From: an uncultured virus (IMG/VR IMGVR_UViG_3300030118_004714)
Lineage: Duplodnaviria > Heunggongvirae > Uroviricota > Caudoviricetes
Virus record (IMG/VR): IMGVR_UViG_3300030118_004714
Length of the DNA stretch: 64,000 bases
Strand: one strand, 5' to 3'
Of the stretch, positions 1,681 through 57,906 are shown piece by piece. The position numbers were made by a program, and so were the translations under genes. The notes below the pieces were generated by a model, which was not told the DNA's origin, did not search any database, and saw only the letters and a program-made list of their open reading frames with translations. Numbering within the stretch: the first letter of the stretch is position 1; every line of letters starts with the position of its first letter.

Positions 1681-1684
1681 TTTC

Positions 1685-1798: not shown

Positions 1799-1837
1799 TA
1801 TTCCACCAACACCGTTTGTTTGTTTGTTGGTTAGAAG

Positions 1838-2218: not shown

Positions 2219-2418
2219 GGAGGGCTTTAAAGGGAGGAAAAGCCTCTCCTAAAGATTACTCCTTAATCATCGTATATACCCTAGCGAAAGCATTGTCAAT
2301 AAGCCCCTTAGAAATATATAAAATGCCAGCACCATTAGTCAAAGATTTATTATTAGTTCATAAAAATGTTGAAATGATTAAAGCCGAAGAGATGGAAAAA
2401 GCGAGTAAAAAGAAGTGA
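2203..2418 (+). CDS. -1 frameshift extension of the tail assembly chaperone (gpGT analogue)
   Basis: -1 frame is open from the slippery site to TGA 2416-2418: RRLRRALKGG...LAKALSISPLEIYKMPAPLVKDLL...ASKKK. Confidence 0.8.
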   Translation, partial: KKRRLRRALKGGKASPKDYSLIIVYTLAKALSISPLEIYKMPAPLVKDLLLVHKNVEMIKAEEMEKASKKK

Positions 2419-2423
2419 TTTTC

Positions 2424-4340: not shown

Positions 4341-4345
4341 TTAAT

Positions 4346-4942: not shown

Positions 4943-4951
4943 GGTTTTATT

Positions 4952-19430: not shown

Positions 19431-20332
19431 GAATCCTGTTCTGCTCCTTCACAAATACCAAAGAAAGAACAATGGGTACAAGTCTTGTAAAAGAATTTAG
19501 TTGGAAAGTGTTTTTGTTCATAGGCATATATTAATTCCGCAATGTGATTCATAACAGAAGTCATTGTTCTCTTCTTAACTGGCTCAACTGTAATATGATT
19601 CGCCACAGGATAGTACCAACCCCAATGACTAATTTCCATATTAGGGGTGAGGCCGTGTTTAGCAAGAACCTCTTCTGTTGAGTTCTCAATCATTAACTGA
19701 TAGAAAGCCATTTCCTTTCTCATGGCTGTTGATTTGTAATCTTTCCAACTACCCGTTTTGTATTCAAAAGGAATAAGTTTTCCGTTCTCAATGAATACTC
19801 GGTCAATAATACCTTGAAGACGAACTGTGTAGTCTCTTTGTAGGGTGAACTTTTTATGCGTATCTTTTGGAATTACTACTTCACAATCAAACATTCTTTC
19901 ATTGATAACAGGAAGAAACTCTTCGGTCTTTCCTTCGGCTACGGCTTCAATAAATCTTTGAGCCTCAAAAGCAGCAACAGTCAGAGAAATATCGTAATAC
20001 TCATCAATAGGCATTAATGAATTACAGTACTCAATGATTTCAGTATTATTCATTTTTTCTGCCTTTTTGACATCAAAATCATCAAAGAACGCTTCTCGGT
20101 GATTGTGCAATACTGTTCCTTTACGCATGGCTTCTGTTTGGTCTTGGGGCAAACGCTCAACATAAGAAAACTCATACTTTTTGGGACACCAAACATATGA
20201 CATCAAAGAAGACTTTGATATTTTTAATATCGGTTGAGAGGGGTCTGCATAATTTTCAGGCATCCATTTGTATGTAAATTCTTTCATACCGGCAAGTGCG
20301 GCTTCATATTTTTCATCTATGTTCAAAACCAT
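19421..20332 (-). CDS. Cas4/RecB-like PD-(D/E)xK exonuclease with Fe-S cysteines
   Basis: CPKKY, GTVLH, GIIDRV, EYKTG, CTHCSFFGIC. Confidence 0.85.
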   Translation of the reverse strand: MVLNIDEKYEAALAGMKEFTYKWMPENYADPSQPILKISKSSLMSYVWCPKKYEFSYVERLPQDQTEAMRKGTVLHNHREAFFDDFDVKKAEKMNNTEIIEYCNSLMPIDEYYDISLTVAAFEAQRFIEAVAEGKTEEFLPVINERMFDCEVVIPKDTHKKFTLQRDYTVRLQGIIDRVFIENGKLIPFEYKTGSWKDYKSTAMRKEMAFYQLMIENSTEEVLAKHGLTPNMEISHWGWYYPVANHITVEPVKKRTMTSVMNHIAELIYAYEQKHFPTKFFYKTCTHCSFFGICEGAEQDSWL

Positions 20333-21210
20333 TCCTCCAATGTTCTTTGTCCTTTTATTGTTCTTATATTTTCCATTTGCCAACCCATCGCTTCATAGAT
20401 AGGTTTTGCTTTCTTTATAAGTTGCTCTGCGTAATGATGATAGTCAGGTTCGTAGGAATAAAAATCCGAAAGAATCGTTCCTGCAATATACTCTACATCA
20501 CGCTTTTCCTTTGTTAGTGGGTTTGTATATTTATCATTAACTCCCAACACCTTCAAGAAAATATAGGAATCATCAAATGTCATGTTCTGTTTTTCCCAAG
20601 CATAAAGAACGCCAGCAATACCCGAACCAATACTAGGTCGCTTCTTTTGTTCAGTCAAGAAATTCTTGGTTGGGTTTCCACATTTTTCACAATTGTGAAT
20701 ATGAAGAATGTTTCTCATGTTGTATTTTGAGCGACATTGTGAACACATTAATTTAAAGCGTTCTTCTTTTAATCTGCTTCTCTTTGCGAAATAATCAGTA
20801 GGGAATTCTCCATTAACAACCTTTGCATAAGTTTCTCTTAGAAATTTGTTGATTTCTTCAAAGGAGAATTGTTGCGCCCACATTTTCAATAACTCGGTTT
20901 GAAACCACTTCGCAAGTTTTGTTTCGCTAACTCTCTTGGCCGTGAAACCAGTCATGGTAAATTTTGGTTCATCCAAATAAGAACCATCTTCCCATGTAAT
21001 CATTCCTGCGTTTCTGTTTTTGACCGTCCCAACACCCAATGCTGAAAAATACTTTTCAAATTCCAGACTAATGGGATGTTGTTCAAGTCCGAGAACATTC
21101 GGGAAACTTTTTTTGACTTCATCTTCAATCACCTTAATTACTTTTTGTGCGGCTTCTACGGAATCAATTTGCACATATATAGAATCGGTATGTCCATAAA
21201 CCACTTTCAT
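20323..21210 (-). CDS. polB: Family B DNA polymerase, C-terminal subunit (motif C and thumb)
   Basis: Begins MKVVYGHTDSIYV; LEFEK, KNRNAG, GFTAKR; CSQC...CEKC insert. Confidence 0.9.
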   Translation of the reverse strand: MKVVYGHTDSIYVQIDSVEAAQKVIKVIEDEVKKSFPNVLGLEQHPISLEFEKYFSALGVGTVKNRNAGMITWEDGSYLDEPKFTMTGFTAKRVSETKLAKWFQTELLKMWAQQFSFEEINKFLRETYAKVVNGEFPTDYFAKRSRLKEERFKLMCSQCRSKYNMRNILHIHNCEKCGNPTKNFLTEQKKRPSIGSGIAGVLYAWEKQNMTFDDSYIFLKVLGVNDKYTNPLTKEKRDVEYIAGTILSDFYSYEPDYHHYAEQLIKKAKPIYEAMGWQMENIRTIKGQRTLEEWF

Positions 21211-21543: not shown

Positions 21544-21694
21544 TTTTATTCACACTCTGAGTAATCTCAATAATTTCAGCATGCCTTTTTAGATTGTTCA
21601 TCATTTGAAAAATTTCTTGGACTTCTTCTAAAGTAATATCCCAAGTTTCTTCGGAGTCGTAATCTACTTTCACTAATACAAATTTAGTTTTCAT
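21521..21694 (-). CDS. 57-aa hypothetical protein (not in ORF track)
   Basis: MKTKFVLVKVDYDSEETW...; ATGA overlap with the stop of the PolB N-terminal half. Confidence 0.55.
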   Translation of the reverse strand: MKTKFVLVKVDYDSEETWDITLEEVQEIFQMMNNLKRHAEIIEITQSVNKNDDGQDE

Positions 21695-23328
21695 ATTTCC
21701 ATCTCCTTTGCTTTAAATGCGGCTAAACGAATTGCTTCTCTTGCACTTGCTGTAATACTTGCGGCTAAATCTACATCAGCCCAACCAAAACCTTGGAAGG
21801 CAACGATACCATAGAAAGAAGCCATTAGTCTTTTAACTGCCATTTGATTGTTATACCACTTTTGATATTCTCCATTGTTCGTCTCTCTTGCTTCTTTCAT
21901 CAGTCGCTTGTAATCGTTCCGCAACTCTTTCAACTCAAGGACGGCTCTCGGAAGAAGACCCAGTTTATCAGTCTTATAGTAGAGCATATCCCGATGTTTT
22001 ACATCGCTGAAATCTCTTGGCGTTGAGATGTTCACAGCAAACTCTGTTGGTTCTGCCGACTTTGTTTCCCACGAAATGTTTCGGGCAATCATCATTGAAG
22101 GGTAAAGTCCTGCATAGTCAAATGCGGCTACATTCAAATGAAGCCCTTGAGTTTGTTCGCTCAATGGGTCGTAAATCATAGCCCCGTCATATTCTCGGCG
22201 TTCAATATCCCTGTTTCCTGTTGGGGCTTTCCAAGTAGCGTTTCGCATAAAATAGATTGAACCCATATGGCTTGCATAAAAACAAGCATCAAACGGTGCT
22301 TTTAGCAAACGCTGTAATGAAACAATTGCTTCACTACAAAAGTTTGTCTCATCAATACGCACCAATAATTCAACATCAACCAAAGCGTATTCCAAATAAA
22401 CATCTGTGTCTTCTAACCAAGCCCTTCGGAAGAATTCGTTTCTGTCTTCAAATTTACTCTTCTTTATTTTACCTTCACCAAAAAGAGTTTGTGAAACATA
22501 TTCAAGGCTTAATGAAGGTAGTGTTCCTCTTTGTGAGTCATTCCATTGACGCTCAAAAGCAAGGTCAAGAGAGAGTGTTATGCGGCCCCCTATGGGCTGT
22601 TCAATGGGGGAGAACCCCTTTTCACCATAGGCAAAAGTAAAGCCATTCCTGCTTGATTTAACGCCCTTAATGCTTGCTGTTGGGGATATGATGCGAGGGT
22701 CAATTCCCAAAGCACAAGCCCTTTTCAGAAGGTGGGGCAGGTCAAATTTATTTCCAAACCAAGCAATTAGCATATCAGGGTCATTGAGAAGCATGGTGTT
22801 GAAAAATGACTCCAACATATCCTTTTCGCTACTAAAAACAAAACAACTAAAATCAGTTTCAATTTCTTCGGGAAACCAAACCCACTGCAAATACTTTTTG
22901 TCGTAGTTGTCATAGGCAACAATCGTTGTAATACAATCGTGGTATTCTCCACCTTGTTGCCATTCCATATCCCAATACCATTTTCTCATTTCATATTCTG
23001 GCATTTCGTCAATTTCATCCACTGCATATCTAAAATGATAAGGGACATCTGCTTCATAGGTTTGACGAAACTCATCCTTTGCTTTGCGAATATCAAAAGA
23101 AGACTCAACATAAACTTTCTTTAACGGTTCGCCATCTAAATTTTGATAGTCCCCTTCTTCATAATCAAACTCACGCTCAATATACTTTGAGGGTTTGTAA
23201 GAAAATGCATGCTCATTTACAGGAATATAGAAGTAAGGGCGAAAGGGAGTAATATTCCATTTCTTTTCTCCATCCTCTCTCCATGATGTGTATATTCTTT
23301 TACCGTCATTTATTTTGCTAATAATCAT
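21691..23328 (-). CDS. polB: Family B DNA polymerase, N-terminal subunit (exonuclease, motifs A and B)
   Basis: YEADV, WDME, NKFDLPHL, YALVD, DYAGLYPS, KRLMASFYG. Confidence 0.92.
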   Translation of the reverse strand: MIISKINDGKRIYTSWREDGEKKWNITPFRPYFYIPVNEHAFSYKPSKYIEREFDYEEGDYQNLDGEPLKKVYVESSFDIRKAKDEFRQTYEADVPYHFRYAVDEIDEMPEYEMRKWYWDMEWQQGGEYHDCITTIVAYDNYDKKYLQWVWFPEEIETDFSCFVFSSEKDMLESFFNTMLLNDPDMLIAWFGNKFDLPHLLKRACALGIDPRIISPTASIKGVKSSRNGFTFAYGEKGFSPIEQPIGGRITLSLDLAFERQWNDSQRGTLPSLSLEYVSQTLFGEGKIKKSKFEDRNEFFRRAWLEDTDVYLEYALVDVELLVRIDETNFCSEAIVSLQRLLKAPFDACFYASHMGSIYFMRNATWKAPTGNRDIERREYDGAMIYDPLSEQTQGLHLNVAAFDYAGLYPSMMIARNISWETKSAEPTEFAVNISTPRDFSDVKHRDMLYYKTDKLGLLPRAVLELKELRNDYKRLMKEARETNNGEYQKWYNNQMAVKRLMASFYGIVAFQGFGWADVDLAASITASAREAIRLAAFKAKEMEI

Positions 23329-34513: not shown

Positions 34514-34788
34514 TCTTCTTCCTCCGTAGGAATGGCTATCCAAGCACGACGAGAATTTGAAACCCATGTGTAAATATGAGTTTTATAGAATTCTTTCAAT
34601 TCTTTATCTCGCTTGGTTTTTCTGGACTTTGCCCATTGAATCCCTTTGTTTTCCCTTGGTTTGTTTTCATCGTTAGGATGCGCCTTTTGGTGGCGAGCCG
34701 TTCTTTGTTTTAGCGTTAAATTTTCAGCCTCTCTCATTGGCCTGTCCGGGTATTTTTTCGCAGTATCAAATCCTGTTTTTCTTGTCAT
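34510..34788 (-). CDS. Basic hypothetical protein
   Basis: 92 aa Lys/Arg-rich; overlaps both neighbours. Confidence 0.55.
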   Translation of the reverse strand: MTRKTGFDTAKKYPDRPMREAENLTLKQRTARHQKAHPNDENKPRENKGIQWAKSRKTKRDKELKEFYKTHIYTWVSNSRRAWIAIPTEEEE

Positions 34789-35483
34789 TCCTCTTCACCT
34801 CTTGGTCTTTGTTGTGTTTTTTCTGGTTCTCCATTTGCATAGATTTCAAGTTTATTTTTACTAAACTTGCTCCAAAAGCCATAGTGTCCTTTTGTGGACA
34901 TTTGACTTCCAAGAACATATGCACAATTGATGTGTTCTTCCCAAATGTTGATTGTTCTCCAATCCGTTCCGCTAAAGTAGGCGGAACCAAATGGGTGAGT
35001 ATGAATCCAACACTTGATAGGAAGTTTCATTCCAATGAGTGTTGATGGGTCAATTGTCAAATAATCAACATATCCAGCCGTACCAGTTGAAACATAAATG
35101 TCATTCTTTGAATCAATGACTGCTTGGACTTCAAGCCCCGGCAATATTTCAGTAGAAGCATACCAAATAGCATCATGCAAATCCAGAGAATGTTCAGCAT
35201 CTTGAACAACTGTAAAATCTTCCCAATTTACTGTTGATGTTGCTTCCATCAAACATCTATTCCATGCCTCTTCAACATAGCGAACTGCTTCAACTCGCCC
35301 TTCTTCAATTTCCTTTCTTTTTTGTACGATTATTTTTGCTCTTTCTTTGTTATTCATATTTTTCACCTTTTCATTATTTTTTAACCATTCTTTATAGCCT
35401 TCTTCCATCAACCATTCATCATATCCTGAATCGTCGTCATCATCGGGATTCTCCCGAATAAACCAATCCCCACTTTTGCTCAT
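34785..35483 (-). CDS. JAB/MPN+ metalloprotease (deubiquitinase-like)
   Basis: Upstream Glu (GLEVQ) plus WIHTHPFGSAYFSGTD = HxH-x7-S-x2-D. Confidence 0.88.
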   Translation of the reverse strand: MSKSGDWFIRENPDDDDDSGYDEWLMEEGYKEWLKNNEKVKNMNNKERAKIIVQKRKEIEEGRVEAVRYVEEAWNRCLMEATSTVNWEDFTVVQDAEHSLDLHDAIWYASTEILPGLEVQAVIDSKNDIYVSTGTAGYVDYLTIDPSTLIGMKLPIKCWIHTHPFGSAYFSGTDWRTINIWEEHINCAYVLGSQMSTKGHYGFWSKFSKNKLEIYANGEPEKTQQRPRGEEE

Positions 35484-35971
35484 TCTTCCCCACCTCGGAG
35501 GCGCATGAGTTTGTCGTTGAGTTTGTTCATTTTGGCGATTATACGCTTCTCCTTACGGCTTGAAGGAATCTTGGGTATGTAAGGTTCCTTTCGTTCTCGG
35601 ACGGTCATAGCGGCCTTCCTAACAAGTTCTATGTGAGTCAGTTCTGTGCTGTCAATCAATTGCTCAAGGCGACCAGCACATTCAGCATAACTGCAACCAA
35701 AATATCCTCGCACCTCATCAATGCTCATATCATAGAAATTAACCAGCAAGAAGAAATCTTTCTTCGCATCCCAACCCGATGAAGTTTGGGTTTCTTCGGC
35801 AATAACTTTAGTTTGTTGTAGTTTCTTCCACTTCATTTTTGTTGCGTGTGCTGAACGCTTATTTCCAGCAACGGATTCAACCGCATAAGCAACCGATTCA
35901 AATTCAGTCGCATTGGTAATCTTCAACAATAATTCCTCTTCTTCTTTTGTCCATTTTATTCCTCGGCTCAT
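35480..35971 (-). CDS. Protein with Myb/SANT-like HTH repeats
   Basis: KWTKEEEELL...RSAHATKMKW and WDAKKDFFLL...CSYAECAGRL. Confidence 0.6.
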   Translation of the reverse strand: MSRGIKWTKEEEELLLKITNATEFESVAYAVESVAGNKRSAHATKMKWKKLQQTKVIAEETQTSSGWDAKKDFFLLVNFYDMSIDEVRGYFGCSYAECAGRLEQLIDSTELTHIELVRKAAMTVRERKEPYIPKIPSSRKEKRIIAKMNKLNDKLMRLRGGEE

Positions 35972-36525
35972 ACATTCACCACCATATATTCTCTAACTTC
36001 TTCGCCGTTAAACCAGCGTTGAATCCATTGTGCGCCCAATCCTGCAATTGCGACTTGCATGTAATGTACGCCTTTATTTGTTCCATCCCATGAATCTCCT
36101 TGACAACTAAACGACCCTTCTTCACCAGCCAAAAGCATATCATACATTTTCGGGTCTGCCTTATGCGACACAAGGGCGGCGTTCCTACCCTGCGCCCGTA
36201 AGTCTAACCACTTAATGCTTGTGTTGTAAAGGGTTCGTCGCAACCCGATATTATCAACACAACAAATAACCAAATCATAATTTTGCATTTGTGATTCTGC
36301 AAGAATAGGATAGGTGCTTGCATGACTTACGGAGGAATATTCATCCCTCATCACCATGGCCTTGTTTTGCCCGACATGTCCCTTCTTAAAATTTTGATAA
36401 GATAAATTTTTATTTTCAACTTTATCCGGGTCTGCAACAGAAATCCGATATAATCCTGCTCTGTGTAAAATAGGAATTAGAAAACTTCCAATTCCGCCTG
36501 CTCCAATAACTAATACTTTTCTCAT
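35968..36525 (-). CDS. ThiF/E1-like ubiquitin-like activating enzyme
   Basis: VIGAGGIGS, D.DKVE.KNL.YQ, GQNKA, DLVICCVDN...RR, candidate catalytic Cys in SFSCQ. Confidence 0.9.
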   Translation of the reverse strand: MRKVLVIGAGGIGSFLIPILHRAGLYRISVADPDKVENKNLSYQNFKKGHVGQNKAMVMRDEYSSVSHASTYPILAESQMQNYDLVICCVDNIGLRRTLYNTSIKWLDLRAQGRNAALVSHKADPKMYDMLLAGEEGSFSCQGDSWDGTNKGVHYMQVAIAGLGAQWIQRWFNGEEVREYMVVNV

Positions 36526-46147: not shown

Positions 46148-46402
46148 CTAACTGGTTGAGGATAGCATCTCAAAGGCTATCGCTAAACCAATAATCAATA
46201 TACCAAAGCCCCAGATTAAGCGACTTCTAACATTGTTAGGAGGATTGCATTTTCTTTTCAAGCAATAGTGGCTTACTAATATATTGCCTTGATGAACATA
46301 AGTCTCAAGTAAATGATTTGTTCCTTCAGGAATATCTATTCCACAAGTTTGGCAAATAGTGTTTTTATCTGCCTTAACATAGACTTCTTCAATAAGTTTC
46401 AT
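46148..46402 (-). CDS. Zn-binding protein with C-terminal membrane helix
   Basis: CQTCG...HYC...C; LIWGFGILIIGLAIAF. Confidence 0.55.
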   Translation of the reverse strand: MKLIEEVYVKADKNTICQTCGIDIPEGTNHLLETYVHQGNILVSHYCLKRKCNPPNNVRSRLIWGFGILIIGLAIAFEMLSSTS

Positions 46403-46594: not shown

Positions 46595-47056
46595 TTATTC
46601 TTCCGAATCGTCGGAAAGAAGGGATGCAACGCTACCGTCCCATTCGCCAGCCTTGTATTGCTTGCTCAAAGCATTACGAGTTCGCTTCACAACGGAAGCG
46701 GCGTATTCTTCGGCAGTTTCGTACAAAGCACCACCACGGGCGAAAGAAACGCTCGCAATAATGGCATCATGGTTGTAGTAGTTGAGGGCGGCTTCGCTCA
46801 CAACGCCACAGATTTTATCCAATGAAACACGGACGGCGGTTGGAACTGCGGCTTTCTTTCCGGGTCGGAAAGGCGTTCCGTCTCGTCCCTTCAAGAGAGC
46901 CTTAACTGCGTTTCGGCAGTTCTCACGCTCTCCAGCGTCATTCGTTCCAATCTCAAGGTTGAGGCTGATGACTTGTTTCAGTCCAGCCTCAAGGTCTGCG
47001 GCCTCAAGGTATTCGTTCACATCAAGCACTAGGCTATCCCATTCGGTGTTTTCCAT
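46595..47056 (-). CDS. Hypothetical protein, paralog family P (copy 1)
   Basis: Shares W...L.LG...R...AV...KG...P...GG.Y...W(D/N)G with 48924, 49580 and 50801. Confidence 0.7.
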   Translation of the reverse strand: MENTEWDSLVLDVNEYLEAADLEAGLKQVISLNLEIGTNDAGERENCRNAVKALLKGRDGTPFRPGKKAAVPTAVRVSLDKICGVVSEAALNYYNHDAIIASVSFARGGALYETAEEYAASVVKRTRNALSKQYKAGEWDGSVASLLSDDSEE

Positions 47057-47299: not shown

Positions 47300-47665
47300 G
47301 AAAATGCGTCTCACTTTGCATCCGTCTCGCATTCGTCTCAAGTGCAAATGAGACAAATTTGGAGCGAGTTATGTGGCATAACCCACACCACAAAAACCAG
47401 TAAATGCAAAAATGCAAAAATGCGTCTCATTCGTCTCATATCTCATGGGGGGTCTTTCTCTCTCTCATATCTACTCTCTTCATAACTCCCTCTCATAGAA
47501 CCTCTTAATAGAATGCTTTATGTTCTCTCTCATTATGATGATGATGATGATATGAGATATGAGATATATGAGATGTATTGATTAATAATAGGTAGTTATG
47601 AAACATAACTACCCCTACCCTCATCTAATACAATCCGTCTCATTCTCTGTCCAGCGTGAGACGAA
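47300..47665. repeat. CGTCTCA/TGAGA repeat cluster in the non-coding strand-switch region; candidate replication origin
   Basis: CGTCTCA at 47307, 47334, 47423, 47432, 47636; CGTCTCG at 47323; inverted TGAGAC at 47349 and 47657; ATGAGAT tandem; AT-rich flank. Confidence 0.6.
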
Positions 47666-47867
47666 TTGAACAATCTATACTATATGATATATTGAATATT
47701 GAATATGCTATGTTATTCTTATTTGAAATACCTGCAATTGAATAAGACTCCTTATTTTCAGTTCTATATTCGGCTTAATTTATTTTAACAAGTGTTAAGG
47801 GTTCTTTAAATATGAAGTAAGAAATACTCGCTTTCTTACCATATGGTTGGCTTTGCTGAACCCCGAA

Positions 47868-48068
47868 TCATTCGGGGGGGTTGCACCCCAAGCACGATTT
47901 GAGTTCCCATTTGTGGTCAGTCAAAACGCAATTTCGTGTTGCTATCACTTGAACATAATTCACCCACTTGTGGGTTCCTCCACCATACTGCCCCCAACCA
48001 AGGAGGTTTGACATTTCACGAATTTTGTCCCATTGGTTTCTCATTTCTTCATCAGTCATTTCTGTCAT
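47868..48068 (-). CDS. Cassette 1 hypothetical protein
   Basis: GGTGA RBS; hairpin CCCCGAA-TCA-TTCGGGG at the 3' end. Confidence 0.55.
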   Translation of the reverse strand: MTEMTDEEMRNQWDKIREMSNLLGWGQYGGGTHKWVNYVQVIATRNCVLTDHKWELKSCLGCNPPE

Positions 48069-48423
48069 GTTTGTTCACCTGTGGATATGTTGAATCGGAG
48101 ACACACCTCGTTCTACCCTTTACTTATTTCAATCGCTTTACCGCTTTCCGTCGCAGTTTCCTTCGCACTTTTCCTAGGATTGTTGCGCCTTGTTTCCGCT
48201 TTCGTGTCGGGATTCTCGCCTATTTCTGTCGGTTGATGTGTTCTTTTCGTCAAGGAGGGATGCATTTCACTTGACTACACCAATGCGGGAGGAATTGTTC
48301 TGAAAATGGGGTATTACCAAAGTCTTACCATATGGTCATAACTTTGTGCCATTGACCATGAGCGACTCATCCCCCCATGGATTTTAGGGGGGTGAGTCCT
48401 CTTGGGCTTATTTTTGGGGAATA

Positions 48424-48756
48424 TCAACGGATAGCCTTCGGTGGGGCGTTTCCTGCCATTAACTGGTCATGGCTTGGGTATCGCCACGCATTCTCAATTG
48501 AGGCCAATTCACGCAGAGCATACTCACGAAAATCCAAAGCCCTCTCAAATAGGGCTTTGGGGTCGTCCAATTTCCATAGGTTGTCTTCATCAGATTCGGG
48601 GAGGTAATACTGAACGGCTTCCCTTGCCCCGGTGGTGATGTAATAACAGGCATCAAAATACATGTCAATCAAAAATTGATGGCGAGACTCAAAACAACTG
48701 AATTCTTGAACTTTACCGCCATGCCCGGTAATCTGCAAATACAAAAAACGACACAT
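48424..48756 (-). CDS. Cassette 2 hypothetical protein
   Basis: GGCTATTATG start context; downstream hairpin 48364-48399. Confidence 0.55.
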   Translation of the reverse strand: MCRFLYLQITGHGGKVQEFSCFESRHQFLIDMYFDACYYITTGAREAVQYYLPESDEDNLWKLDDPKALFERALDFREYALRELASIENAWRYPSHDQLMAGNAPPKAIR

Positions 48757-48923
48757 AATAGCCAATTAAGCCTAAATAATATCTTAAGGTATCTTCAAAG
48801 ACATTACCATATGGTAGTGCTTTGCACTGTGAAACGAAACCCTACTCAAAGTTAATCACTTAACAGGCTATTGTCGTGCGGGGCAACACAAACCGAAAAC
48901 CCCCTCTACTGGAGATGAAAAAC

Positions 48924-49451
48924 ATGAAACTGGAAAACTGGAAGCGAAACTCTGGCGTTGTCCGTCTATTTTTGGACACGCTGGAGGACGAAAACAAACA
49001 TAAGCAAATGTTGTTGGGAACCCTTGAATTGGGTGATGAGCAACAAACTGACGAAATGCGAACCGTGTATTGGACGGCTGTTCGGAATATGGGGAAGGGT
49101 GTTGAAAACTTCCCTTCTTTCTCTGGGCGACCTCAAGAATCCTACACGCCGGAACAAATCGCAAATCTGAACCTGATTGCCAATGTGGTGCGCTCTGCCT
49201 ATGCGTCAATCCCTACTGAAATGCGAGAGGTGCTTTTGAAAGTGGATATTCCCCACGGAAAGACTGGTGGCGAATATGCTGACTGGGACGCTCTAACGGA
49301 CGAAAAAATCCGTAAGGCCGAATCGGTTATGAAAACCGCCATCAAAGAGAAGCGTTGGGATGCTCTCGCCATGAACGGTGAAGTGCCACAAATTACCCCA
49401 CGGCCTGTTAAGGAAAAGGCCGTTTCTGCGGAGGTTTCCGAGGAAGAATGA
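48924..49451 (+). CDS. Cassette 3: paralog family P (copy 2)
   Basis: DEMRTVYWTAVRNMGKG, PHGKTGG; hairpin GGCCCCC-GAAA-GGGGGCC at 49479-49496. Confidence 0.75.
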   Translation: MKLENWKRNSGVVRLFLDTLEDENKHKQMLLGTLELGDEQQTDEMRTVYWTAVRNMGKGVENFPSFSGRPQESYTPEQIANLNLIANVVRSAYASIPTEMREVLLKVDIPHGKTGGEYADWDALTDEKIRKAESVMKTAIKEKRWDALAMNGEVPQITPRPVKEKAVSAEVSEEE

Positions 49452-49579
49452 ATCGGTTGAATTGTGTTGCCCCGTTCCGGCCCCCGAAAGGGGGCCATCG
49501 GGTAAAAGTGCAAAGCATTACCATATGGTTCAATACTTTGGAATTTGAACCTTGAGAATTAAAACAGTGCCTCACTTAC

Positions 49580-50096
49580 ATGCGTAAGCACCAAACTGCC
49601 GAAGAAAAATTGCTAATGGTTCGTGAACGACTCCATATTCTTGAAGACCTCAAATTGGCTAACATCATTGAGGACATCATCAATACTGGCTTTTCGGGTG
49701 CTATTTCTCTGCATAACGCTCTTGAGTCCATTCGTGTCCTTCTTCGGTCCATCAACATGCCAATCCACCGTGTTGGATTCGTCCCCCCTCTGCCTTCCGA
49801 TGTTCAAGCCCGAATCTACGAGGCTTCGGAGAGGGTGAGGGAGGCTTTCAGTGCTCTCTATGTGAACGAAAACTACCTTTTGCCGTTTATCGTCCGNNNN
49901 NNNNNNGAAGGACTTTGACGACGCACACCACGACCGATGGTGTCTTTTGGATGCTCTCGTAGGTGAACAGTGCGCCAAGGTTGAGCGAATGCTTGAGAAG
50001 GCATATCGTGAACGCCGATGGAACGGCAAAGTTCCCATTGAATACGCCCGAAGCCGACTCAACATCATGGAGGGCGACCACTTTTACGAAGAATGA
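49580..50096 (+). CDS. Cassette 4: divergent paralog family P (copy 3), spanning an N gap
   Basis: LPSDVQARI...VREAFSAL before the gap and LEKAYRERRWNG after it, in another frame; the gap length is presumably nominal. Confidence 0.55.
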
Positions 50097-50203
50097 AGTG
50101 GCCTTCGGGGGTTTATCCCCCATTGGGTAATCAAAGCCTCACCATATGGTAATGCAACTTTGAATATGCATTACCTCATAAATAGCCTGAATTAACGGCT
50201 ATT

Positions 50204-50416
50204 ATGAACGGATGGACTAACCGTGAAACTTGGCTTGTTGTTCTTCATTTCTCCGACCTCGTTAGCAACGGGTGGTCTTGGGATGGTGTCAAGGCGATGA
50301 TTGAAGAAGAATGGGACGCTATTTCAAAAACCGCTTTTTTCAGCGACTACCTCAACCTCGGTTTGATTAACTGGGATGAAATCAAGCGTTCAGGGTATGG
50401 AGATGATGAAGAATGA
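50204..50416 (+). CDS. Cassette 5 gene A (NGWTNRETW-type small virus protein)
   Basis: MNGWTNRETWLVVL...INWDEI; GGCTATTATG start context. Confidence 0.65.
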   Translation: MNGWTNRETWLVVLHFSDLVSNGWSWDGVKAMIEEEWDAISKTAFFSDYLNLGLINWDEIKRSGYGDDEE

Positions 50417-50655
50417 GCGAAGAATGGCCTATTCTCGTCCTTGACAAAACCGAAGACCCCGATGTTAGGCATTGGGAACCTGCGCTCGCTTGTCCTCGTT
50501 GTAGGTATGAAATGACCTATATAGGCAAATATCCCGACCTTTACGGCTCGCAGGGATTGATTGATGTTGATAAGTGGGTTTGTGTGATGTGCGGTCAAAT
50601 GCTGAAATTGCCTCACGGGGAGATTAAGCCTCTTTCACCACCCTCAAAGGCTTAA
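50413..50655 (+). CDS. Cassette 5 gene B, zinc ribbon
   Basis: CPRC...WVCVMCG; ATGA overlap. Confidence 0.6.
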   Translation: MSEEWPILVLDKTEDPDVRHWEPALACPRCRYEMTYIGKYPDLYGSQGLIDVDKWVCVMCGQMLKLPHGEIKPLSPPSKA

Positions 50656-50800
50656 AGCCGCCCTTCGGGGTTATAATCAAAGCAAACCATATGGTAGGAA
50701 TGCTTTGCATTCAAATAAAATGATACCCTAACCTCCTTTTTGGCAGAATACTTATGGTTTCGTGGGGAAACGAAGCAATCTGTTCAAGGAAGTGAACAAC

Positions 50801-51337
50801 ATGGCAGGAATGAAAGAAGAAAATTGGATTCGCAACACCAACCCAATTCGGGCATGGTTGAACGAAACCGAGGAAACACCGAAAACGCTCGTTATCAAAG
50901 GCACAATTGCCCTTGGTGATGAAGCAGAGAATGATGAAATGCGAGGCACATACTGGGTCGCTGTGAGGAATATGGGAAAAGGTTGCGACACCTTCCCACA
51001 ATCCAATATTGGCAAACCATCTACGCTCCCTCAAGAGGTACAAGACAATGTGCTTTCTGTGAGGAACCGTTTGGTTCGTGCATTTGCGGGAATTGGTGAG
51101 CAAGACCTCATTATGAAGGTAATGTTCCCACACGGTAAAACCGGAGGTGCATACCCATCCTTTGATGACTGGGTGAACGCTCAAGCCAAAAAGGGCGTTG
51201 ATGCTCTCGTTAAGGGCTACCGAGCAAAACCCGAACAACGCTGGAACGGCGAAATGGTGGATGATTTGCCCACCTTGACACCTCCACCACAAAAGGCCAA
51301 GAAAGCCGAAGCCGACGAGGTGAGCGAAGAAGAGTGA
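50801..51337 (+). CDS. Cassette 6: paralog family P (copy 4)
   Basis: DEMRGTYWVAVRNMGKG, PHGKTGG, ends EVSEEE like copy 2. Confidence 0.75.
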   Translation: MAGMKEENWIRNTNPIRAWLNETEETPKTLVIKGTIALGDEAENDEMRGTYWVAVRNMGKGCDTFPQSNIGKPSTLPQEVQDNVLSVRNRLVRAFAGIGEQDLIMKVMFPHGKTGGAYPSFDDWVNAQAKKGVDALVKGYRAKPEQRWNGEMVDDLPTLTPPPQKAKKAEADEVSEEE

Positions 51338-51452
51338 TTGCTCCGATTTCCCCCGAAGCCCCCACACGGGGTTTTCGCTACGCTGGCAAAGCCAAACCAT
51401 ATGGTGTTGCTTTGTTGCACCATGTTCTAAAATACTCAAAAGTCTGACTATT

Positions 51453-51815
51453 ATGTTCACACAAAAGAAGAAGCGACATTTGATTGACAATACCTGCGGC
51501 TGGATGCTTGACATTCAAAATCGTGTTGGTAAGGGTATTGCTTGGTCTTTGACCTCTCATCACCGCCAATTCATTGAATTGGTTGAAAATGACGATGGAA
51601 ACATTACCTTTGAGGAATGGAAGGAAGCCTCCAAAAGGCTCATGCAATTTCACGCCATGGCTCGTAATGACATTTATGACGGCCATACTTGGAGTGTAAA
51701 GATTGATGCCGAAGGCCATGAACAGGAAGAGTTTGAAACCGTTTCCCGTGAAGAAAAAGATGTCCGTTCTCTTCTCTACATCTATCACACCGAGTATGGC
51801 GATGAAGAAGAATGA
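51453..51815 (+). CDS. Cassette 7 hypothetical protein
   Basis: GACTATTATG start context; hairpin GGGGC-TTCG-GCCCC downstream. Confidence 0.65.
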   Translation: MFTQKKKRHLIDNTCGWMLDIQNRVGKGIAWSLTSHHRQFIELVENDDGNITFEEWKEASKRLMQFHAMARNDIYDGHTWSVKIDAEGHEQEEFETVSREEKDVRSLLYIYHTEYGDEEE

Positions 51816-52062
51816 AACCGTTGGGGCTTCGGCCCCTTCGGGGGTGTTCAAAGCACAACCATATGGCTTTGTATTCCAAATTTTTTTATTTGCATAACCA
51901 TTTAATATTATCGTTTTAATGTGTATTTTAGCCCAATAAACATATATTTTAAACATTTTAATGTTTTGCGCCCGTACTTATTAACAACTTTTGTTCTTAA
52001 TAATAACAGGATTTGTTTGCCGCCCTGCGACAAGTATATATGATGCATCCGTATAGGCTGGT

Positions 52063-52290
52063 TTGATAACGGTGTCCGACGAGGCCGAAATAGTAGAAAC
52101 CTTACAGGACATGAACAGTAGATTGGACACCATACTAAGAGAGATAAAGGCGAAGAAAAAGGCCAATAAACAGTTAGATTCACAGGACATTAACATTTTA
52201 AATAATATCTATAATGAGTTAATTAAAACGACAAATACAATTAAAGGTTATTTAAACAAAGATACTAAACAAACTAAATTAATTAAATGA
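52063..52290 (+). CDS. Possible small coiled-coil protein in AT-rich region
   Basis: ORF track only; weak start context. Confidence 0.35.
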   Translation: MITVSDEAEIVETLQDMNSRLDTILREIKAKKKANKQLDSQDINILNNIYNELIKTTNTIKGYLNKDTKQTKLIK

Positions 52291-52403
52291 TATAATTAAA
52301 TGAATAAACTTTTATCCTGTTAATAATAAATTAAAAACGCTAAATTTTTCGCAAGTGCCAAAAAAATTCCGAGCCATTTTTTGAGAAATTTTAAGGTGAT
52401 ATT

Positions 52404-52700
52404 ATGTGGCAAAACATATTAAAAGCAGAATCCGAAGCAGATATTAAAGAAGAAGTCATTGAGACTCTAAAGCAGGTGCATGAAGCGGCTCTTAATCAAT
52501 TTTACAAACAATATTCAGAAAGAGCAGAAAGAGGAGTTAGAATTACAGACAAAAATAAAAATATTCCCATGCCAAAATACATTACTGTTTTAGAAGAGGC
52601 TCTTATGAAACTCGGCTATAATTTGCCAAAAGAGAAAAGAGCAGGAACTCATAGATATGCCGATGTTAATGAGTTTAGGGAAATTAGACAGTATAGGTGA
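52404..52700 (+). CDS. WxxILK-family protein (MWQNILK)
   Basis: AGGTGATATT-ATG start; N-terminal motif. Confidence 0.7.
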   Translation: MWQNILKAESEADIKEEVIETLKQVHEAALNQFYKQYSERAERGVRITDKNKNIPMPKYITVLEEALMKLGYNLPKEKRAGTHRYADVNEFREIRQYR

Positions 52701-52744
52701 AAAAAAATTCCGCCAATTTTTTTTGAGAAACTTTAGGTGATATT

Positions 52745-53398
52745 ATGTGGAAAGACACAATCAGAAAGAAAGAAGAAGAAAAATTTTCAACTATGCCCAA
52801 AAACTTAATGTTTGAATGGGAATGGAGAAAAAAGACAAATCCAGACTTTGATTATGGCCCAGAGTTGGAGCAAAACTCATGGAGCCAAGATGTTAGCACT
52901 CTTTTCGTTGCTGGTAGGGCCAGACAATTAGATATTCAAAAAGGAATAAACGCACTAAAAGAAATGGACATTAAATGCTTTGTTGCTGACTTAATCAACG
53001 AAAATACTTCGGACGATTTCACGGGGCATTTGCATTTTGGTGTAGCGGTAAAGGCTACTTCAGGAGCAAAAGAAGTTATTCTCTACTTTGACACCGATAC
53101 TGAAGCATATTGGGTAGGCGGAGATTATCCTGAAATTGAAAACATTCATCTGCCTTTTGAATTAACCAATCCTAGGGCTTTTAGTGCCATAGTGATGAAC
53201 AGATTGGGGTTCAATGTCGGGGTTAAAGAGGATGATAGATACGACAAAGAAGCCGAAAAAGAACTTTATAGAAAACTTAGGGCAGAAGAAATCACTTATG
53301 ACCAGTTCGTTTATGGAATGCAGGATTTAGGCATCGCTATGGATAGAGGTTATTCTGATACTCAGCAAAGAGCCGCAGAACGAGGCTATTACTTTTGA
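52745..53398 (+). CDS. WxxILK-family protein (MWKDTIRK)
   Basis: Same RBS and start string. Confidence 0.7.
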   Translation: MWKDTIRKKEEEKFSTMPKNLMFEWEWRKKTNPDFDYGPELEQNSWSQDVSTLFVAGRARQLDIQKGINALKEMDIKCFVADLINENTSDDFTGHLHFGVAVKATSGAKEVILYFDTDTEAYWVGGDYPEIENIHLPFELTNPRAFSAIVMNRLGFNVGVKEDDRYDKEAEKELYRKLRAEEITYDQFVYGMQDLGIAMDRGYSDTQQRAAERGYYF

Positions 53399-53407
53399 GG
53401 CGATATT

Positions 53408-53797
53408 ATGTGGAAAGACATCCTAAAACAAGACAATAAACGATTTGATGATGAAAGAGAAGATTTAGAAATTAAATTAGAACAATTAGTTGAAGATTGG
53501 GGAAAAAGTCAAGATATTAGCGACTTTGAATACTTTGCTGATTATAACGGCCCGAATCTTGATGGAGTTGAAATTGATGTCACTTTTGAAGATATGTATG
53601 AAGGTGAAGAAGATTTATCCCAAGAAGAAAAATTAGAAGAAGATGTTGGTTATTACCGAATAGATTTCCGTAGCACAAAATATGAAGAATTTGCTATGGG
53701 TGATTATACTTACAATAATGGATTTGAGATGCACGAATTTACTCCTGAAAAATTAGACATTAACGAATTAAAGGAAGCCATAAGGGGATTATCATGA
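53408..53797 (+). CDS. WxxILK-family acidic protein (MWKDILK)
   Basis: Same start string. Confidence 0.7.
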   Translation: MWKDILKQDNKRFDDEREDLEIKLEQLVEDWGKSQDISDFEYFADYNGPNLDGVEIDVTFEDMYEGEEDLSQEEKLEEDVGYYRIDFRSTKYEEFAMGDYTYNNGFEMHEFTPEKLDINELKEAIRGLS

Positions 53798-54036
53798 CAT
53801 GGAAGGACAAACTCAAAAAATATGAAGGCCCAGAATCAGAAAGATACAGAACTCTTGGTTCAGCATATAATCCTGACCCTGATGAAGAAGATAGATATGA
53901 AGAAATGGTGGAAGATATTTGCATTAGATGTGGTAAGAAATTAAAGGAAAATGAAGGATTTACTGATACCCGACTTGGAAGACAATATGATAATATTTGC
54001 GATGCCTGTAAGAGAAAAAATCCGAATGACCCTTAA
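53794..54036 (+). CDS. WxxILK-family zinc-finger protein (MTWKDKLK)
   Basis: CIRC...CDAC. Confidence 0.65.
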   Translation: MTWKDKLKKYEGPESERYRTLGSAYNPDPDEEDRYEEMVEDICIRCGKKLKENEGFTDTRLGRQYDNICDACKRKNPNDP

Positions 54037-54045
54037 GGTGATATT

Positions 54046-54243
54046 ATGTGGAAAGATGAAATCAAGAAAAGAGAAATGGCTGAATTAATGTCTTTAATTA
54101 AACAAGCAATGGATATTGCAATTAAAGAGGGCGAATCTGCGATTGGTGCAGATTTGGCTAAAATACTTCGTGCAGTTAAGAGAAAGGACGAATCTTCTAG
54201 GCTCTATACTGGAAGAAGGGTTCAATTTGGAGATGACCATTGA
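54046..54243 (+). CDS. WxxILK-family protein (MWKDEIK)
   Basis: AGGTGATATTATGTGG start. Confidence 0.65.
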   Translation: MWKDEIKKREMAELMSLIKQAMDIAIKEGESAIGADLAKILRAVKRKDESSRLYTGRRVQFGDDH

Positions 54244-54506
54244 TGAGCGATTGGCGGGAACAACTCAAAAGAAATTATAATTTTAGCAAAACTATGATTT
54301 CAGACCTTTACGAGATTTTAAGATATAATCCTAATTTGCCACTTCAATCAATTGTAGATGCATTAGGAAAAAGAGGACATCGGAGAGCATCTAAAAAGAA
54401 TACTAGACAATATATGGAAAAAGACCCCAATATTAAATCAGTAATTGATACAAAAAGTTTTTCACATAGGCCAACTGTTTATTATTTAAAGGAGGAGAAA
54501 GCATGA
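54243..54506 (+). CDS. WxxILK-family wHTH-like protein (MSDWREQLK)
   Basis: LYEILRYNP.L.L..IV..L...V YYL pattern. Confidence 0.55.
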   Translation: MSDWREQLKRNYNFSKTMISDLYEILRYNPNLPLQSIVDALGKRGHRRASKKNTRQYMEKDPNIKSVIDTKSFSHRPTVYYLKEEKA

Positions 54507-54649
54507 ATTGGAAAAGAATACTGAAGACAGAAAAGAAACAATTTGAAAAGAAAGGCGGAAAGCCAGACTTTTTGGATTTGGATAAGGACGGGAATAAAAC
54601 CGAGCCTATGAAGGAAGCGGCAAAGGACGCTAAGAAAGGGAAGGAATGA
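54503..54649 (+). CDS. 48-aa WxxILK-family protein with EF-hand-like loop (not in ORF track)
   Basis: MNWKRILK...PDFLDLDKDGNKTEPMK; GGAGG RBS. Confidence 0.65.
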   Translation: MNWKRILKTEKKQFEKKGGKPDFLDLDKDGNKTEPMKEAAKDAKKGKE

Positions 54650-54758
54650 ACATGACCCGATGCCGCTACCTTGACCGTTGGTTTGATGAAGAGTCAAAGA
54701 AAGTTGATAAGGCAGAGGCCAAAACCAAGAAGTGTTTCGCTACTGGGGGGAAGAAGAA

Positions 54759-55520
54759 ATGAGTTGGTGGAGTATTCTTAAACAGATGGACTATAACAAA
54801 CTAAGTCCTGAGAAAAAGGAATTGATTAAGAGAGAAATGCTTAACGATGTTGGCTTTGATTTAGATATTGAAGATTTTACTTCCGATTTTCCTATCTATT
54901 CTACGAATATGTATTATTCGGATATTGATAAAGAATATCAAGTGGGATTTCCTGACTATTTTAGATTTGCCGCTATTGGTGATTTAGATATTAGAGATGA
55001 AACTCTTATGGGGCATATTGATTTCTTTATTGAGAACAGTAAAGACGAAGATGAATCATATTTTATTGGCTACATGGATGTTGATGAAGATTTAGATGAT
55101 GAAGCGATGGAATTTTTAGACAAATATGGTGAAGACTTAGATACCTTACGAGACTTGATGTTATTACCAGATTTCCAAGAAGAAACTCGTTTAATGTTTG
55201 TTTTTAGTAGAGAACCCGACTACAATAAATTAGTAGGATATTTGAAAGAGTCGGGCAAATGGGAAAGAGAAGATTTAGCGGAACGCATCGGTGAAGAAAC
55301 GGGAAATAAAAGAGGGATGCAAAATAGAGAAATTGTGGAAGCATTAGATGATTTCCAAACACAATATTATGAAAATGAATATGTTGACCCAGAAACTAAT
55401 CAAGAATTAGAAGCCCTTACTGTTGCTATAAGTAATGGGGACACTAAAAATTTAGAAAGAAGATTTCCAGAGGCTTATTTAATTTTTGGTGAAGCCGACC
55501 TTTTGGGTGATTTAGAGTGA
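54759..55520 (+). CDS. WxxILK-family acidic protein (MSWWSILK)
   Basis: ATG 54759; Asp/Glu-rich. Confidence 0.7.
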   Translation: MSWWSILKQMDYNKLSPEKKELIKREMLNDVGFDLDIEDFTSDFPIYSTNMYYSDIDKEYQVGFPDYFRFAAIGDLDIRDETLMGHIDFFIENSKDEDESYFIGYMDVDEDLDDEAMEFLDKYGEDLDTLRDLMLLPDFQEETRLMFVFSREPDYNKLVGYLKESGKWEREDLAERIGEETGNKRGMQNREIVEALDDFQTQYYENEYVDPETNQELEALTVAISNGDTKNLERRFPEAYLIFGEADLLGDLE

Positions 55521-57240: not shown

Positions 57241-57906
57241 ATGGCCGTTAATCGCAAGCGTTGTGGTTTTTGCCAGCATGAAAATCGTGCTGAATTAGAA
57301 CAGGCTCTTGAGTCAAGAGCCATTACTTGCGATGATTTGGATATGCAGAACGGATGGAGAAGCGGAACGGCGGCTCAACATCAACGAAACCACATGGGCG
57401 ATTTTGAAATGTCGTCAAACCCAAAGTGTGCCATCTGTATTGACCCTATGAGGAAGCATTATGAAGCGGCCCTTCATGGTGGAGACATTACTTCGGAGGC
57501 TATCGCTCAAGCACTTGATACCACGAAAGCGCAAGTGCAACGCCACATGAAGCACCACTTGACACCGATTGTTCAAGAGAATGCGGCCATGATGATTGCG
57601 AAAAAGGAAGTTAATGAGGTTGAAATGCTCGCAAATAATGTTCAGCGTTTAGACCATCGTTTAGACCAAGTGTTCAATGAATTAGGCAACGATTTAGACC
57701 CAAAGATGATTGATGCGCTTACTAAGTTAGCCAGAGAAATTCGTGAGTCTTTGAAGTATATGATGGAATTCAAGGGTAAATTGATTCATAAGAGACAGGA
57801 CACAATTATTGTCGCACAGATGCAGATTGTTCAAGAAGTGCTTGCACAGAACAATCCTGAGATTTGGTTGGATATTAAAAGTAAAATGCAGGAGAGATTA
57901 CAATGA
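57241..57906 (+). CDS. Tandem Zn-HTH protein; terminase small subunit candidate
   Basis: Two CxxC...HxxxH units followed by helical oligomerisation-like region; function inferred. Confidence 0.5.
   Translation: MAVNRKRCGFCQHENRAELEQALESRAITCDDLDMQNGWRSGTAAQHQRNHMGDFEMSSNPKCAICIDPMRKHYEAALHGGDITSEAIAQALDTTKAQVQRHMKHHLTPIVQENAAMMIAKKEVNEVEMLANNVQRLDHRLDQVFNELGNDLDPKMIDALTKLAREIRESLKYMMEFKGKLIHKRQDTIIVAQMQIVQEVLAQNNPEIWLDIKSKMQERLQ

Follow-up and report, generated by a model that had tools for sequence, protein, structure and literature searches.

A hypervariable array of small genes bounded by palindrome and stem-loop modules in a likely magrovirus genome

What kind of element stands eight times between the small genes of one viral genome, with the same palindrome at its centre each time and all copies in a single block? 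The question is raised by a stretch of 64,000 nucleotides (nt) from an uncultured tailed virus (IMG/VR record IMGVR_UViG_3300030118_004714; the whole stretch is called the window here), in which positions 47838..51871 hold an array of small genes separated by palindromic repeats. A preliminary description of the sequence called this array integron-like and offered its repeats as recombination points for accessory genes or, alternatively, as sites for a dimeric regulator. We find that the array is probably a hypervariable accessory-gene block of a magrovirus, in which composite terminator, operator and promoter modules make self-contained, shuffled units.

The exact core ACCATATGG is present in eight copies, as the preliminary description had it, at 47838, 48327, 48806, 49520, 50141, 50686, 51396 and 51858 (the last ending at 51866), and nowhere else in the window. 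With one mismatch allowed the count over both strands rises to 35, compared with 11.2 +/- 3.9 in shuffles, and one more bare CCATATGG lies at 22263, within the PolB gene. The longer form CAAAG-N-CCATATGG-N-CTTTG occurs at seven sites in the window and at none in 100 shuffles. All eight copies are intergenic, and the core-to-core spacings of 489, 479, 714, 621, 545, 710 and 462 bp reproduce every interval first noticed. The fourth interval spans a 10-N gap (49898-49907), which corresponds to 21 bases in an identical 33.8-kb fragment (G001; 8012 of its bases match 8001), and its true length is therefore 632 bp.

The copies lie as follows.

47838..47855, no strand: motif copy 1, the left end copy; ACCATATGGT-tgg-CTTTG, without the left CAAAG
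48318..48346, no strand: motif copy 2; leftward ACC box at 48312-48310
48796..48824, no strand: motif copy 3, the divergence point; promoter-like boxes on either side
49511..49551, plus strand: motif copy 4 with its stem-loop; GGTTCAA (49527-49533) and TTGAACC (49545-49551) with CTTTG in the loop, followed by a TATA-like stretch; DNA-fold z -3.0
50132..50175, plus strand: motif copy 5 with its stem-loop; GGTAATGCA (50148-50156) and TGCATTACC (50167-50175); DNA-fold z -5.6
50678..50729, plus strand: motif copy 6; inner stem GAATG/CATTC, ACC box at 50727-50729
51387..51421, plus strand: motif copy 7; short stem GGTG/CACC, ACC box at 51419-51421
51849..51871, no strand: motif copy 8, the right end copy; CTTTG abuts the core with no right spacer, and an A+T-rich stretch comes next

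The end copies are degenerate, as had been noticed, copy 1 in its missing left CAAAG and copy 8 in its missing right spacer. The collapsed form of copy 8 is kept in relatives (for example in contig L017 at 8997 and, in the opposite orientation, in L029, L068 and L004). The array sits where a leftward replication module and a rightward module diverge, and its G+C content (0.44-0.48) exceeds that of the rest of the window (0.33-0.41). The same holds in 42 of 45 related contigs, whose arrays are richer in G+C than their flanks (0.398 vs 0.359, Wilcoxon p 2e-12).

A pattern scan of IMG/VR found the motif in at least 186 stretches on at least 104 contigs (counted by hand), one of them the window's own record. 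For 50 contigs the flanking sequence was retrieved as well (571 kb in total), and each of these contigs carries between 2 and 21 CCATATGG cores; three were duplicates and were dropped from all counts. Four complete genomes of 92.8-96.8 kb hold 9, 7, 6 and 11 ACCATATGGT sites, in each case all within one block of 3.2-4.9 kb, and a reversed-pattern control gave no match in the same four. Across 596 Gb of bacterial and archaeal genomes the pattern matched 18 stretches, which is about the number expected by chance and is scattered over unrelated bacteria, and it matched none in the archaeal genomes of that scan. Confinement to one block per virus genome and absence from archaea thus indicate that the element is viral and no part of a host regulon.

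Two contigs from these scans stand apart. The sole double cellular match is a 14.7-kb contig (NZ_NZTP01000027.1; L212) of a marine metagenome-assembled genome named Altibacter sp., with two full motifs 462 bp apart; it is probably magrovirus DNA binned by mistake. A gene-poor variant of the array occurs at 1387-6011 of IMGVR_UViG_3300030333_003061 (L033), where 21 CCATATGG cores, mostly without CAAAG/CTTTG arms and often 117-176 bp apart, have almost no open reading frame of at least 45 amino acids between them.

The arrays of related viruses differ in a way that points to exchange at the motif. Many of the 47 other contigs share parts of the window's flanks (the helicase, tRNA-Leu, 46.2-47.1 kb, 47.53-47.72 kb and 52.26-53.8 kb), with a DNA identity of 64-90%, and the array interior (47838-51871) has no DNA match in any of the 47 at E < 1e-10. 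Gene-family maps show that cassette content, order and orientation all differ between arrays set in the same flanks. One insertion or deletion of a cassette is clean enough to place its crossover: two cores 397 bp apart enclose a single gene in IMGVR_UViG_3300030012_002778, both map onto one core of IMGVR_UViG_3300030433_001804, and the crossover falls inside the 23-nt motif stretch ACAACCATATGGTATTGCTTTGT that the two share. Two genomes with flanks in the same direction also show an inversion: the 200-bp piece between two cores is oriented oppositely in the two.

Comparison of 359 cores yielded 21 pairs from different contigs with both flanks alike and 36 with one flank alike, the other flank sharing at most one 12-mer. 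Thirteen of the 36 stay in register into the core, and their likeness is lost at the core itself in seven cases and 5, 8, 15, 22, 25 and 29 nt past it in the others. Additionally, assembled metagenome contigs from four public runs split into dissimilar sequence at both edges of motif 2, on the left side of motif 6 and at motif 8, where the branches may come from relatives sharing only the conserved end copy; the joint 5530->7461 and small skips were left out of this evidence, and uncovered parts were not read as absence. In metagenomic data, where the preliminary description proposed to look for junctions at the repeats, contigs thus branch at three motifs. Its proposal that the repeats serve as points for gain, loss and inversion of accessory genes is supported by the variable interior, the crossover in the motif and the 13 junctions. 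A fixed gene order, named there as grounds for giving up recombination, is not what relatives have, and some of the breakpoints fall at the repeats.

The nominally variable spacers beside the core are constrained. A 5' arm opens at the GG(T) of the core, the loop contains CTTTG and the 3' arm ends in ...WACC. The best ungapped stem has a mean length of 4.52 bp over 456 distinct half-sites, compared with 3.62 +/- 0.035 for permuted partners (0 of 200 permutations reached the observed mean), and 187 of the 209 stems of at least 5 bp start exactly at the core GG. In a covariation test on 241 half-sites, with the ACC box defined by sequence alone, the four pairs past GGT/ACC are Watson-Crick in 73, 58, 55 and 36% of cases vs 37, 26, 31 and 25% after permutation (reached in 0 of 1000), and several pair types are found at each covarying position. 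Among stem mismatches there are 87 G:T pairs where 108 are expected and 39 A:C pairs where 75 are expected, a ratio GT/(GT+AC) of 0.69 vs 0.59 +/- 0.025 (again reached in 0 of 1000 permutations). These permutation tests were used in place of alignment-based covariance, as the 3' arms are not right-justified in the MAFFT alignment; for 148 aligned sites the consensus reads ACCATATGGT..(A/G)CTTTG..ACCYTA.

Stems of at least 5 bp are present on 53% of the sides that face a gene start, 39% of other sides and 15% of permuted pairs. In the window the other copies have shorter stems than motifs 4 and 5. The stem is fixed at its ends, at the core and at ACC, and varies in length, and folding it out would put ACCATAT beside YTAWAT. 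The loop sequences CAAAG and CTTTG could pair with each other. The hairpin-forming character first ascribed to the sites is thus real in that a covarying stem-loop is present, but the pairing is not the one between CAAAG and CTTTG that had been pictured.

Each of the seven intervals holds one or two small open reading frames, as described at the outset, with cassettes 1-2 on the minus strand and cassettes 3-7 on the plus strand. The G+C hairpin said to end each interval is found at the stop codons of g1, g2, g3, g4, g6 and g7, that is, in six of the seven units, and is weak after g5b. The units and their nearest neighbour are listed here.

46595..47056, minus strand: family-0 paralogue, directly outside the array
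47861..47877, minus strand: G+C hairpin at the end of g1, with the stop codon within its loop, as read from the sequence
47868..48068, minus strand: g1, 66 amino acids, no family
48113..48282, minus strand: stretch from the promoter-like box of motif 2 to g1, ~170 nt; a leader or small RNA, or a 50-amino-acid open reading frame
48364..48398, minus strand: G+C hairpin after g2
48424..48756, minus strand: g2, 110 amino acids from its ATG, which lies 31 nt past the motif 3 ACC box (48790-48788, minus strand)
48915..49451, plus strand: g3, 178 amino acids, family 0, paralogue of g6 and of 46595-47056 (minus strand); ATG 73 nt past ACC at 48839-48841, with GGAG upstream
49479..49496, plus strand: G+C hairpin after g3
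49580..50096, plus strand: g4, 175 amino acids, one open reading frame when read through the gap in L187; ATG 28 nt past ACC
50107..50121, plus strand: G+C hairpin after g4
50204..50655, plus strand: g5 (70 amino acids, weak DUF7249 match) and g5b (80 amino acids, CxxC..CxxC), overlapping at ATGA; g5 ATG 28 nt past ACC
50801..51337, plus strand: g6, 178 amino acids, family 0; ATG 71 nt past ACC
51354..51377, plus strand: G+C hairpin after g6
51453..51815, plus strand: g7, 120 amino acids; ATG 31 nt past ACC
51823..51844, plus strand: G+C hairpin after g7

Directly after ACC the bases run Y, T/C, A and then A/T-rich, giving a TATA-like YTAWAT. An open reading frame starts within 160 nt of 114 of the 187 stems that begin at the core, and 38 of these 114 starts lie 27-30 nt past ACC (44 at 26-31 nt). 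In the window, g2, g4, g5 and g7 start 31, 28, 28 and 31 nt past ACC without a Shine-Dalgarno stretch, and g3 and g6, both of family 0, have their starts 73 and 71 nt past it with GGAG or AGGAAGTGA upstream. A fixed distance of about this size from TATA-like box to start codon is what leaderless archaeal transcripts give, and suggests that the first group may be transcribed in this way. One RNA contig of a metatranscriptome (run X20) begins at ~50757, which is ACC+28 of motif 6, and is a weak hint in favour of the promoter reading. Promoters of sigma-70 type are not enriched in the window (8 vs 8.4 expected), and a scan of it for intrinsic terminators gave results not usefully above shuffles. 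A logo anchored on start codons was blurred by the variable spacing, and a loose ACC-box pattern applied to the whole window was uninformative.

To judge from its gene content, the window most likely derives from a magrovirus of group-B type, a tailed virus with marine group II archaea as its hosts. Tail proteins occupy 1-14.6 kb, and 15-46 kb on the minus strand form a replication and repair module with a split family-B polymerase, an ATP-dependent ligase, an RFC-like ATPase, a UvrD-like helicase and a Cpn60/GroEL-type chaperonin. Recombination and repair genes encoded include an ERCC4+HhH nuclease, a PD-(D/E)XK/Cas4-like nuclease and an AAA_24 protein; two tRNAs, Arg-tct and Leu-taa, are present. 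The best phage-database matches of PolB are haloarchaeal tailed viruses at ~25% identity. Group B magroviruses, in the available text of their description, have GroEL, tRNA-Leu, tRNA-Arg and terminally redundant genomes of ~100 kb (Philosof et al. 2017, PMC5434244). The assignment follows from the agreement of the chaperonin, the two tRNAs and the PolB affinity with these published traits, and the archaeal-type replication module and the 92.8-96.8 kb of related genomes also agree.

In the reading that we favour, each small gene or gene pair would be its own transcription unit. The module would run from the previous stop codon through the G+C hairpin, CAAAG, ACCATATGGT, the stem-loop with CTTTG in its loop, ...WACC and YTAWAT to a start codon 27-31 nt downstream in leaderless genes, or ~70 nt downstream where there is a Shine-Dalgarno-like stretch. 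Judging by this spacing, the host archaeal RNA polymerase with TBP and TFB would start at the TATA-like box. The invariant 10-bp palindrome would most likely be bound by a virus-encoded dimeric factor, which could place all cassette promoters under one common, probably early, control; the regulator site that the preliminary description gave as an alternative is thus kept here as the likeliest, if conjectural, role of the core. Candidates for such a factor are the family-0 proteins, zinc-ribbon proteins (46148-46402 and 50413-50655) and a weak HTH protein (57241-57903). Recombination between module copies, by a putative pathway, deletes, inserts, swaps and inverts units, as the comparison of relatives shows. 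Because the same module precedes every unit and the core reads alike on both strands, an exchange could delete, duplicate or invert what lies between.

Several observations weigh against this reading. Of the one-flank core pairs, 23 of 36 have junctions that are out of register at the core, and the counts are of pairs and not of independent events. Of 129 BLAST match ends, 12.4% fall no more than 10 nt from a core vs 4.1% for random places, an enrichment of only about threefold to which ordinary intergenic divergence could contribute. The covarying stems are not needed by a plain double-stranded operator, and the sparing of G:T more than A:C hints that one strand, in the sense of the downstream gene, folds alone as RNA or single-stranded DNA, for which this reading does not account. 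The distance of 12-38 nt between palindrome and ACC box is odd for a phase-dependent activator site, and neither of the end copies, 1 and 8, is followed by a cassette gene. Only three RNA contigs, all from one run, touch the array, and contigs cannot show a transcript start. The TATA-like box stays a candidate, and the early timing of the cassette genes is assumed from analogy. Family 0 matches no DNA-binding fold.

How do other explanations fare against the same evidence? The array does share with integrons (IntI, attI, attC and Pc) a series of small cassettes, imperfect-palindrome sites whose structure is kept better than their sequence, variable content and order, and junctions between relatives at the sites; it differs in having no integrase, no R/L boxes, promoter-like boxes of its own, both orientations and no common Pc. 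No tyrosine or serine recombinase (PF00589, PF00239) was found at E <= 0.001 among the 69 open reading frames of the window, itself an incomplete genome, in line with the integrase that the preliminary description could not see. Its suggestion to look in the rest of the genome was taken up with five related records, of which four are 90% or more complete, and none of the five gave a match (controls matched 14 of 14 and 12 of 14 genomes). The attC arrangement R''-L''...L'-R' (RYYYAAC/GTTRRRY) is absent from the consensus of 148 aligned sites. The cassettes are neither promoterless nor one-way, since they carry a promoter-like box at a fixed distance from the ATG and face both ways. As no recombinase was found in the window or in these records, attC boxes are lacking and the cassettes have their own promoter-like boxes in both orientations, the array is not an integron, and the name integron-like does not fit it. 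A true site-specific system, in which a dedicated, unrecognised virus recombinase or nuclease cuts the folded sites and cassettes move as circles, is decidedly improbable for the same reasons and because the insertion/deletion crossover lies within 23 nt of shared sequence, for which plain homology suffices. Its attractions are that structure is conserved and stem sequence varies, as in attC sites, that likeness ends right at the core in 7 of the 13 in-register junctions, and that the core is invariant across distant relatives and the sites confined to one platform per genome. We regard as distinctly unlikely a further reading in which the modules, besides being promoters, are structured recombination sites of an integrase-free cassette-exchange platform, with a virus factor that recognises ACCATATGGT and the extruded hairpins, whose CAAAG and CTTTG loops can pair, and directs cutting or strand exchange. 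If that were so, ready-to-express genes, some of them common to cyanophages, would be captured, dropped and flipped.

A purely regulatory site, the operator or activator site of a dimeric factor in arrays made mosaic by ordinary illegitimate or homologous exchange unrelated to the motif, would account for a perfect 10-bp palindrome upstream of promoter-like boxes. Absence of the motif from host-type genomes makes a virus factor plausible, and the intergenic repeats of the archaeal tailed virus HF2 are, in the available text of their description, experimentally shown promoters with positions kept in the genus (PMC8707807). This reading is unlikely in view of the crossover inside the motif, the 13 junctions 0-29 nt past the core, the 36 of 57 matched core pairs with just one similar flank and the contigs that branch at motifs. 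Covarying stems that start exactly at the core and end exactly at ACC, the bias of G:T over A:C and a cumulative GC skew minimum at 48-49 kb would also fit a folded single-stranded DNA element, either a priming or fork signal near a replication origin or a rolling-circle unit of bind site plus nick hairpin; palindrome beside hairpin is the layout of pT181-type and SNJ2 origins (PMC13107129, in its available text, which is silent on magroviruses). Such an element is improbable here: the 69 open reading frames of the window include no Rep-like gene, the virus has its own PolB replisome, and 6-11 copies per genome, one per gene and at a fixed start-codon distance, fit promoters better than origins. 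Short, numerous, palindromic intergenic repeats might, finally, be selfish REP- or MITE-like miniature elements with no function for the virus. That is very improbable for a repeat that forms one block per genome, has a core invariant across distant relatives, keeps a fixed geometry to TATA-like box and start codon, and comes with no target-site duplications and no transposase.

Of the cassette genes, family 0 is the most constant and occurs in 41 of the 48 contig segments. It has no Pfam family and no PDB sequence match with E below 0.3. Its AlphaFold model (pLDDT 88.5) is all helical; Foldseek returned nothing at E <= 0.001, with Atlas scores of 0.83 or lower, and the best VIA-align Z, 8.3, falls on a generic three-helix part. 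Its 24 homologues are all unnamed. Scans for related loci with the g4, g7 and g2 proteins found only the window's own record and are uninformative on the mobility of these cassettes. A blastn search of 47500-52300 against 50,697 phage records gave no match, and tRNA was the sole match in an Rfam scan.

Other observations concern single cassettes. Family 3 (L048:6071-6367, plus strand), which 18 of the 48 contig segments carry, has a match to PF23790 (Kyanoviridae Gp96; E 1.9e-21) and is therefore a gene common to archaeal viruses and T4-like cyanophages of the same waters. The unrelated proteins of g3-g7 have acidic C-terminal tails (..SEEE, ..FYEE, ..GDDEE, ..GDEEE), and their genes have GAAGAATGA-like ends. 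By crude gene calls, 23 of 138 array open reading frames in relatives end in EEE, and at least three of the last four residues are acidic in 20% of array vs 7% of flank open reading frames. The stretch 48113-48282 (minus strand) starts with GTAGTCAAGTG and contains the inverted repeat GTCAAG..CTTGAC; the same start recurs 48 nt past a core in one relative, IMGVR_UViG_3300025889_000118. A metatranscriptome contig over 48116-48260 has a depth of 451, compared with 3 and 27 for two other RNA contigs, and the stretch may be an abundant small RNA or a 50-amino-acid open reading frame.

The surroundings of the array have features of their own. To its left, the A+T-rich stretch 47532-47723 has GATGATGAT/GAGATAT repeats and, at 47590-47614, a hairpin; its identity to two relatives is 72-74%, and it may be a replication origin. 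To its right, successive genes at 52290-54800 (plus strand) start MWQNILK, MWKDTIR, MWKDILK, MTWKDKLK and MWKDEIK. Those at 52404 and 54046, the two cases read, are preceded by a repeated AAGGTGATATTATGTGG, which would make a second repeated module, this time located at translation starts; near 52389-52393 there are branches in contigs of three runs. In the replication module, the family-B polymerase gene is split or interrupted: its parts at 20326-21210 and 21694-23328 (minus strand) match Pfam DNA_pol_B positions 222-370 and 40-193, with two small open reading frames between them. A ThiF-family E1-like protein (35971-36525, minus strand) lies near a weak JAB-domain match (34788-35483), and the two genes (34788-36525, minus strand) may be parts of a ubiquitin-like modification system.

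These findings have implications for a group of viruses whose hosts are among the most abundant archaea of the surface ocean, and of which neither virus nor host is cultured. We found no publication on how magrovirus genes are switched on. Full-text literature searches, with supplements of magrovirus papers outside their scope, returned no account of the element, and the available texts of PMC5434244, PMC11706807 and PMC10160649 make no mention of a DNA motif, promoter, palindrome or inverted repeat; both occurrences of "motif" in PMC11706807 denote a protein helix-turn-helix. The element is thus a first candidate promoter architecture for magroviruses, with exact predicted transcript starts (in the window near 49580, 50204, 51453, 50757 and ~48870, and near 48756 and ~48282 on the minus strand). 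It marks accessory, probably early, genes, among which functions in host take-over and counter-defence are likely to sit. Its 10-letter tag also finds magrovirus DNA, including the contig apparently mis-binned into a bacterial genome. Additionally, shuffling of promoter-carrying gene units, known from T4-type phages, would appear to shape archaeal viruses as well.

The closest parallel lies in those phages. PeSLs (promoter-early stem-loops) combine a terminator with a promoter and lie in the hyperplastic regions of T4-type phages, where they mediate insertion, deletion and exchange and give rise to mini-circles, according to the available text of the two reports (Arbiol et al. 2010, PMC2839356; Comeau et al. 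2014, PMC4122927). As here, a short terminator/promoter module stands between small, mostly unknown non-core genes, indel and replacement junctions between relatives fall at the module, and recombination by homology proceeds without an integrase. The layout of our array, a repeated stem-loop terminator and promoter (both of predicted activity) in a variable region with conserved flanks, follows the PeSL pattern, and its indel and replacement junctions lie in the module. It differs in belonging to an archaeal virus with a TATA-type box in place of the strong sigma-70-like early promoter, in joining an invariant 10-bp palindrome to a second, covarying stem-loop with CTTTG in its loop, and in forming one array per genome.

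Among archaeal tailed viruses, HF2 has a PolB among those nearest to the window's and carries repeated intergenic A+T-rich boxes before genes, its Class I and II repeats, which are class-specific, kept within the virus group and, by reporter assays, active as promoters (Russ, Pfeiffer and Dyall-Smith 2021, PMC8707807). The magrovirus repeat is likewise kept among related viruses. HF2 TATA boxes judged to be correctly spaced stand at -24 and -28 (PMC8707807), and the 27-30 nt from ACC to ATG in our arrays are measured to the start codon and not to a mapped transcript start. No sequence likeness was seen between the two sets of repeats. Those of HF2, at 29 or 56-58 bp, are few and spread over tens of kb at conserved positions, whereas the repeats here delimit cassettes of single genes, all within one 4-kb block that is not kept among relatives.

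A TATA-plus-inverted-repeat motif precedes most open reading frames of one genome arm of HGTV-1, and in the available text its authors likened it to PeSLs (PMC3950731). In the HGTV-1 sequence (NC_021328), ~30 small genes each follow a module of ~100 bp that contains an inverted repeat together with TATA-like boxes, the proximal of which, CGAAAGACTTAATAC, lies ~22-25 nt before the start codon. The HGTV-1 module differs from that of magroviruses in its constant stem ACTCCTCGTG..CGAGGAGT and in having neither the ACCATATGGT palindrome nor covarying stems. Promoters of the virion RNA polymerase of phage N4 are short conserved-loop hairpins before each early gene that work only when extruded. The array here departs from N4 in that its loops are 7-20 nt and not 3, its box is of TATA type and no virus RNA polymerase is found among the 69 open reading frames of the window. 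The joining of a covarying hairpin to an invariant palindrome sets the magrovirus module apart from all known analogues compared.

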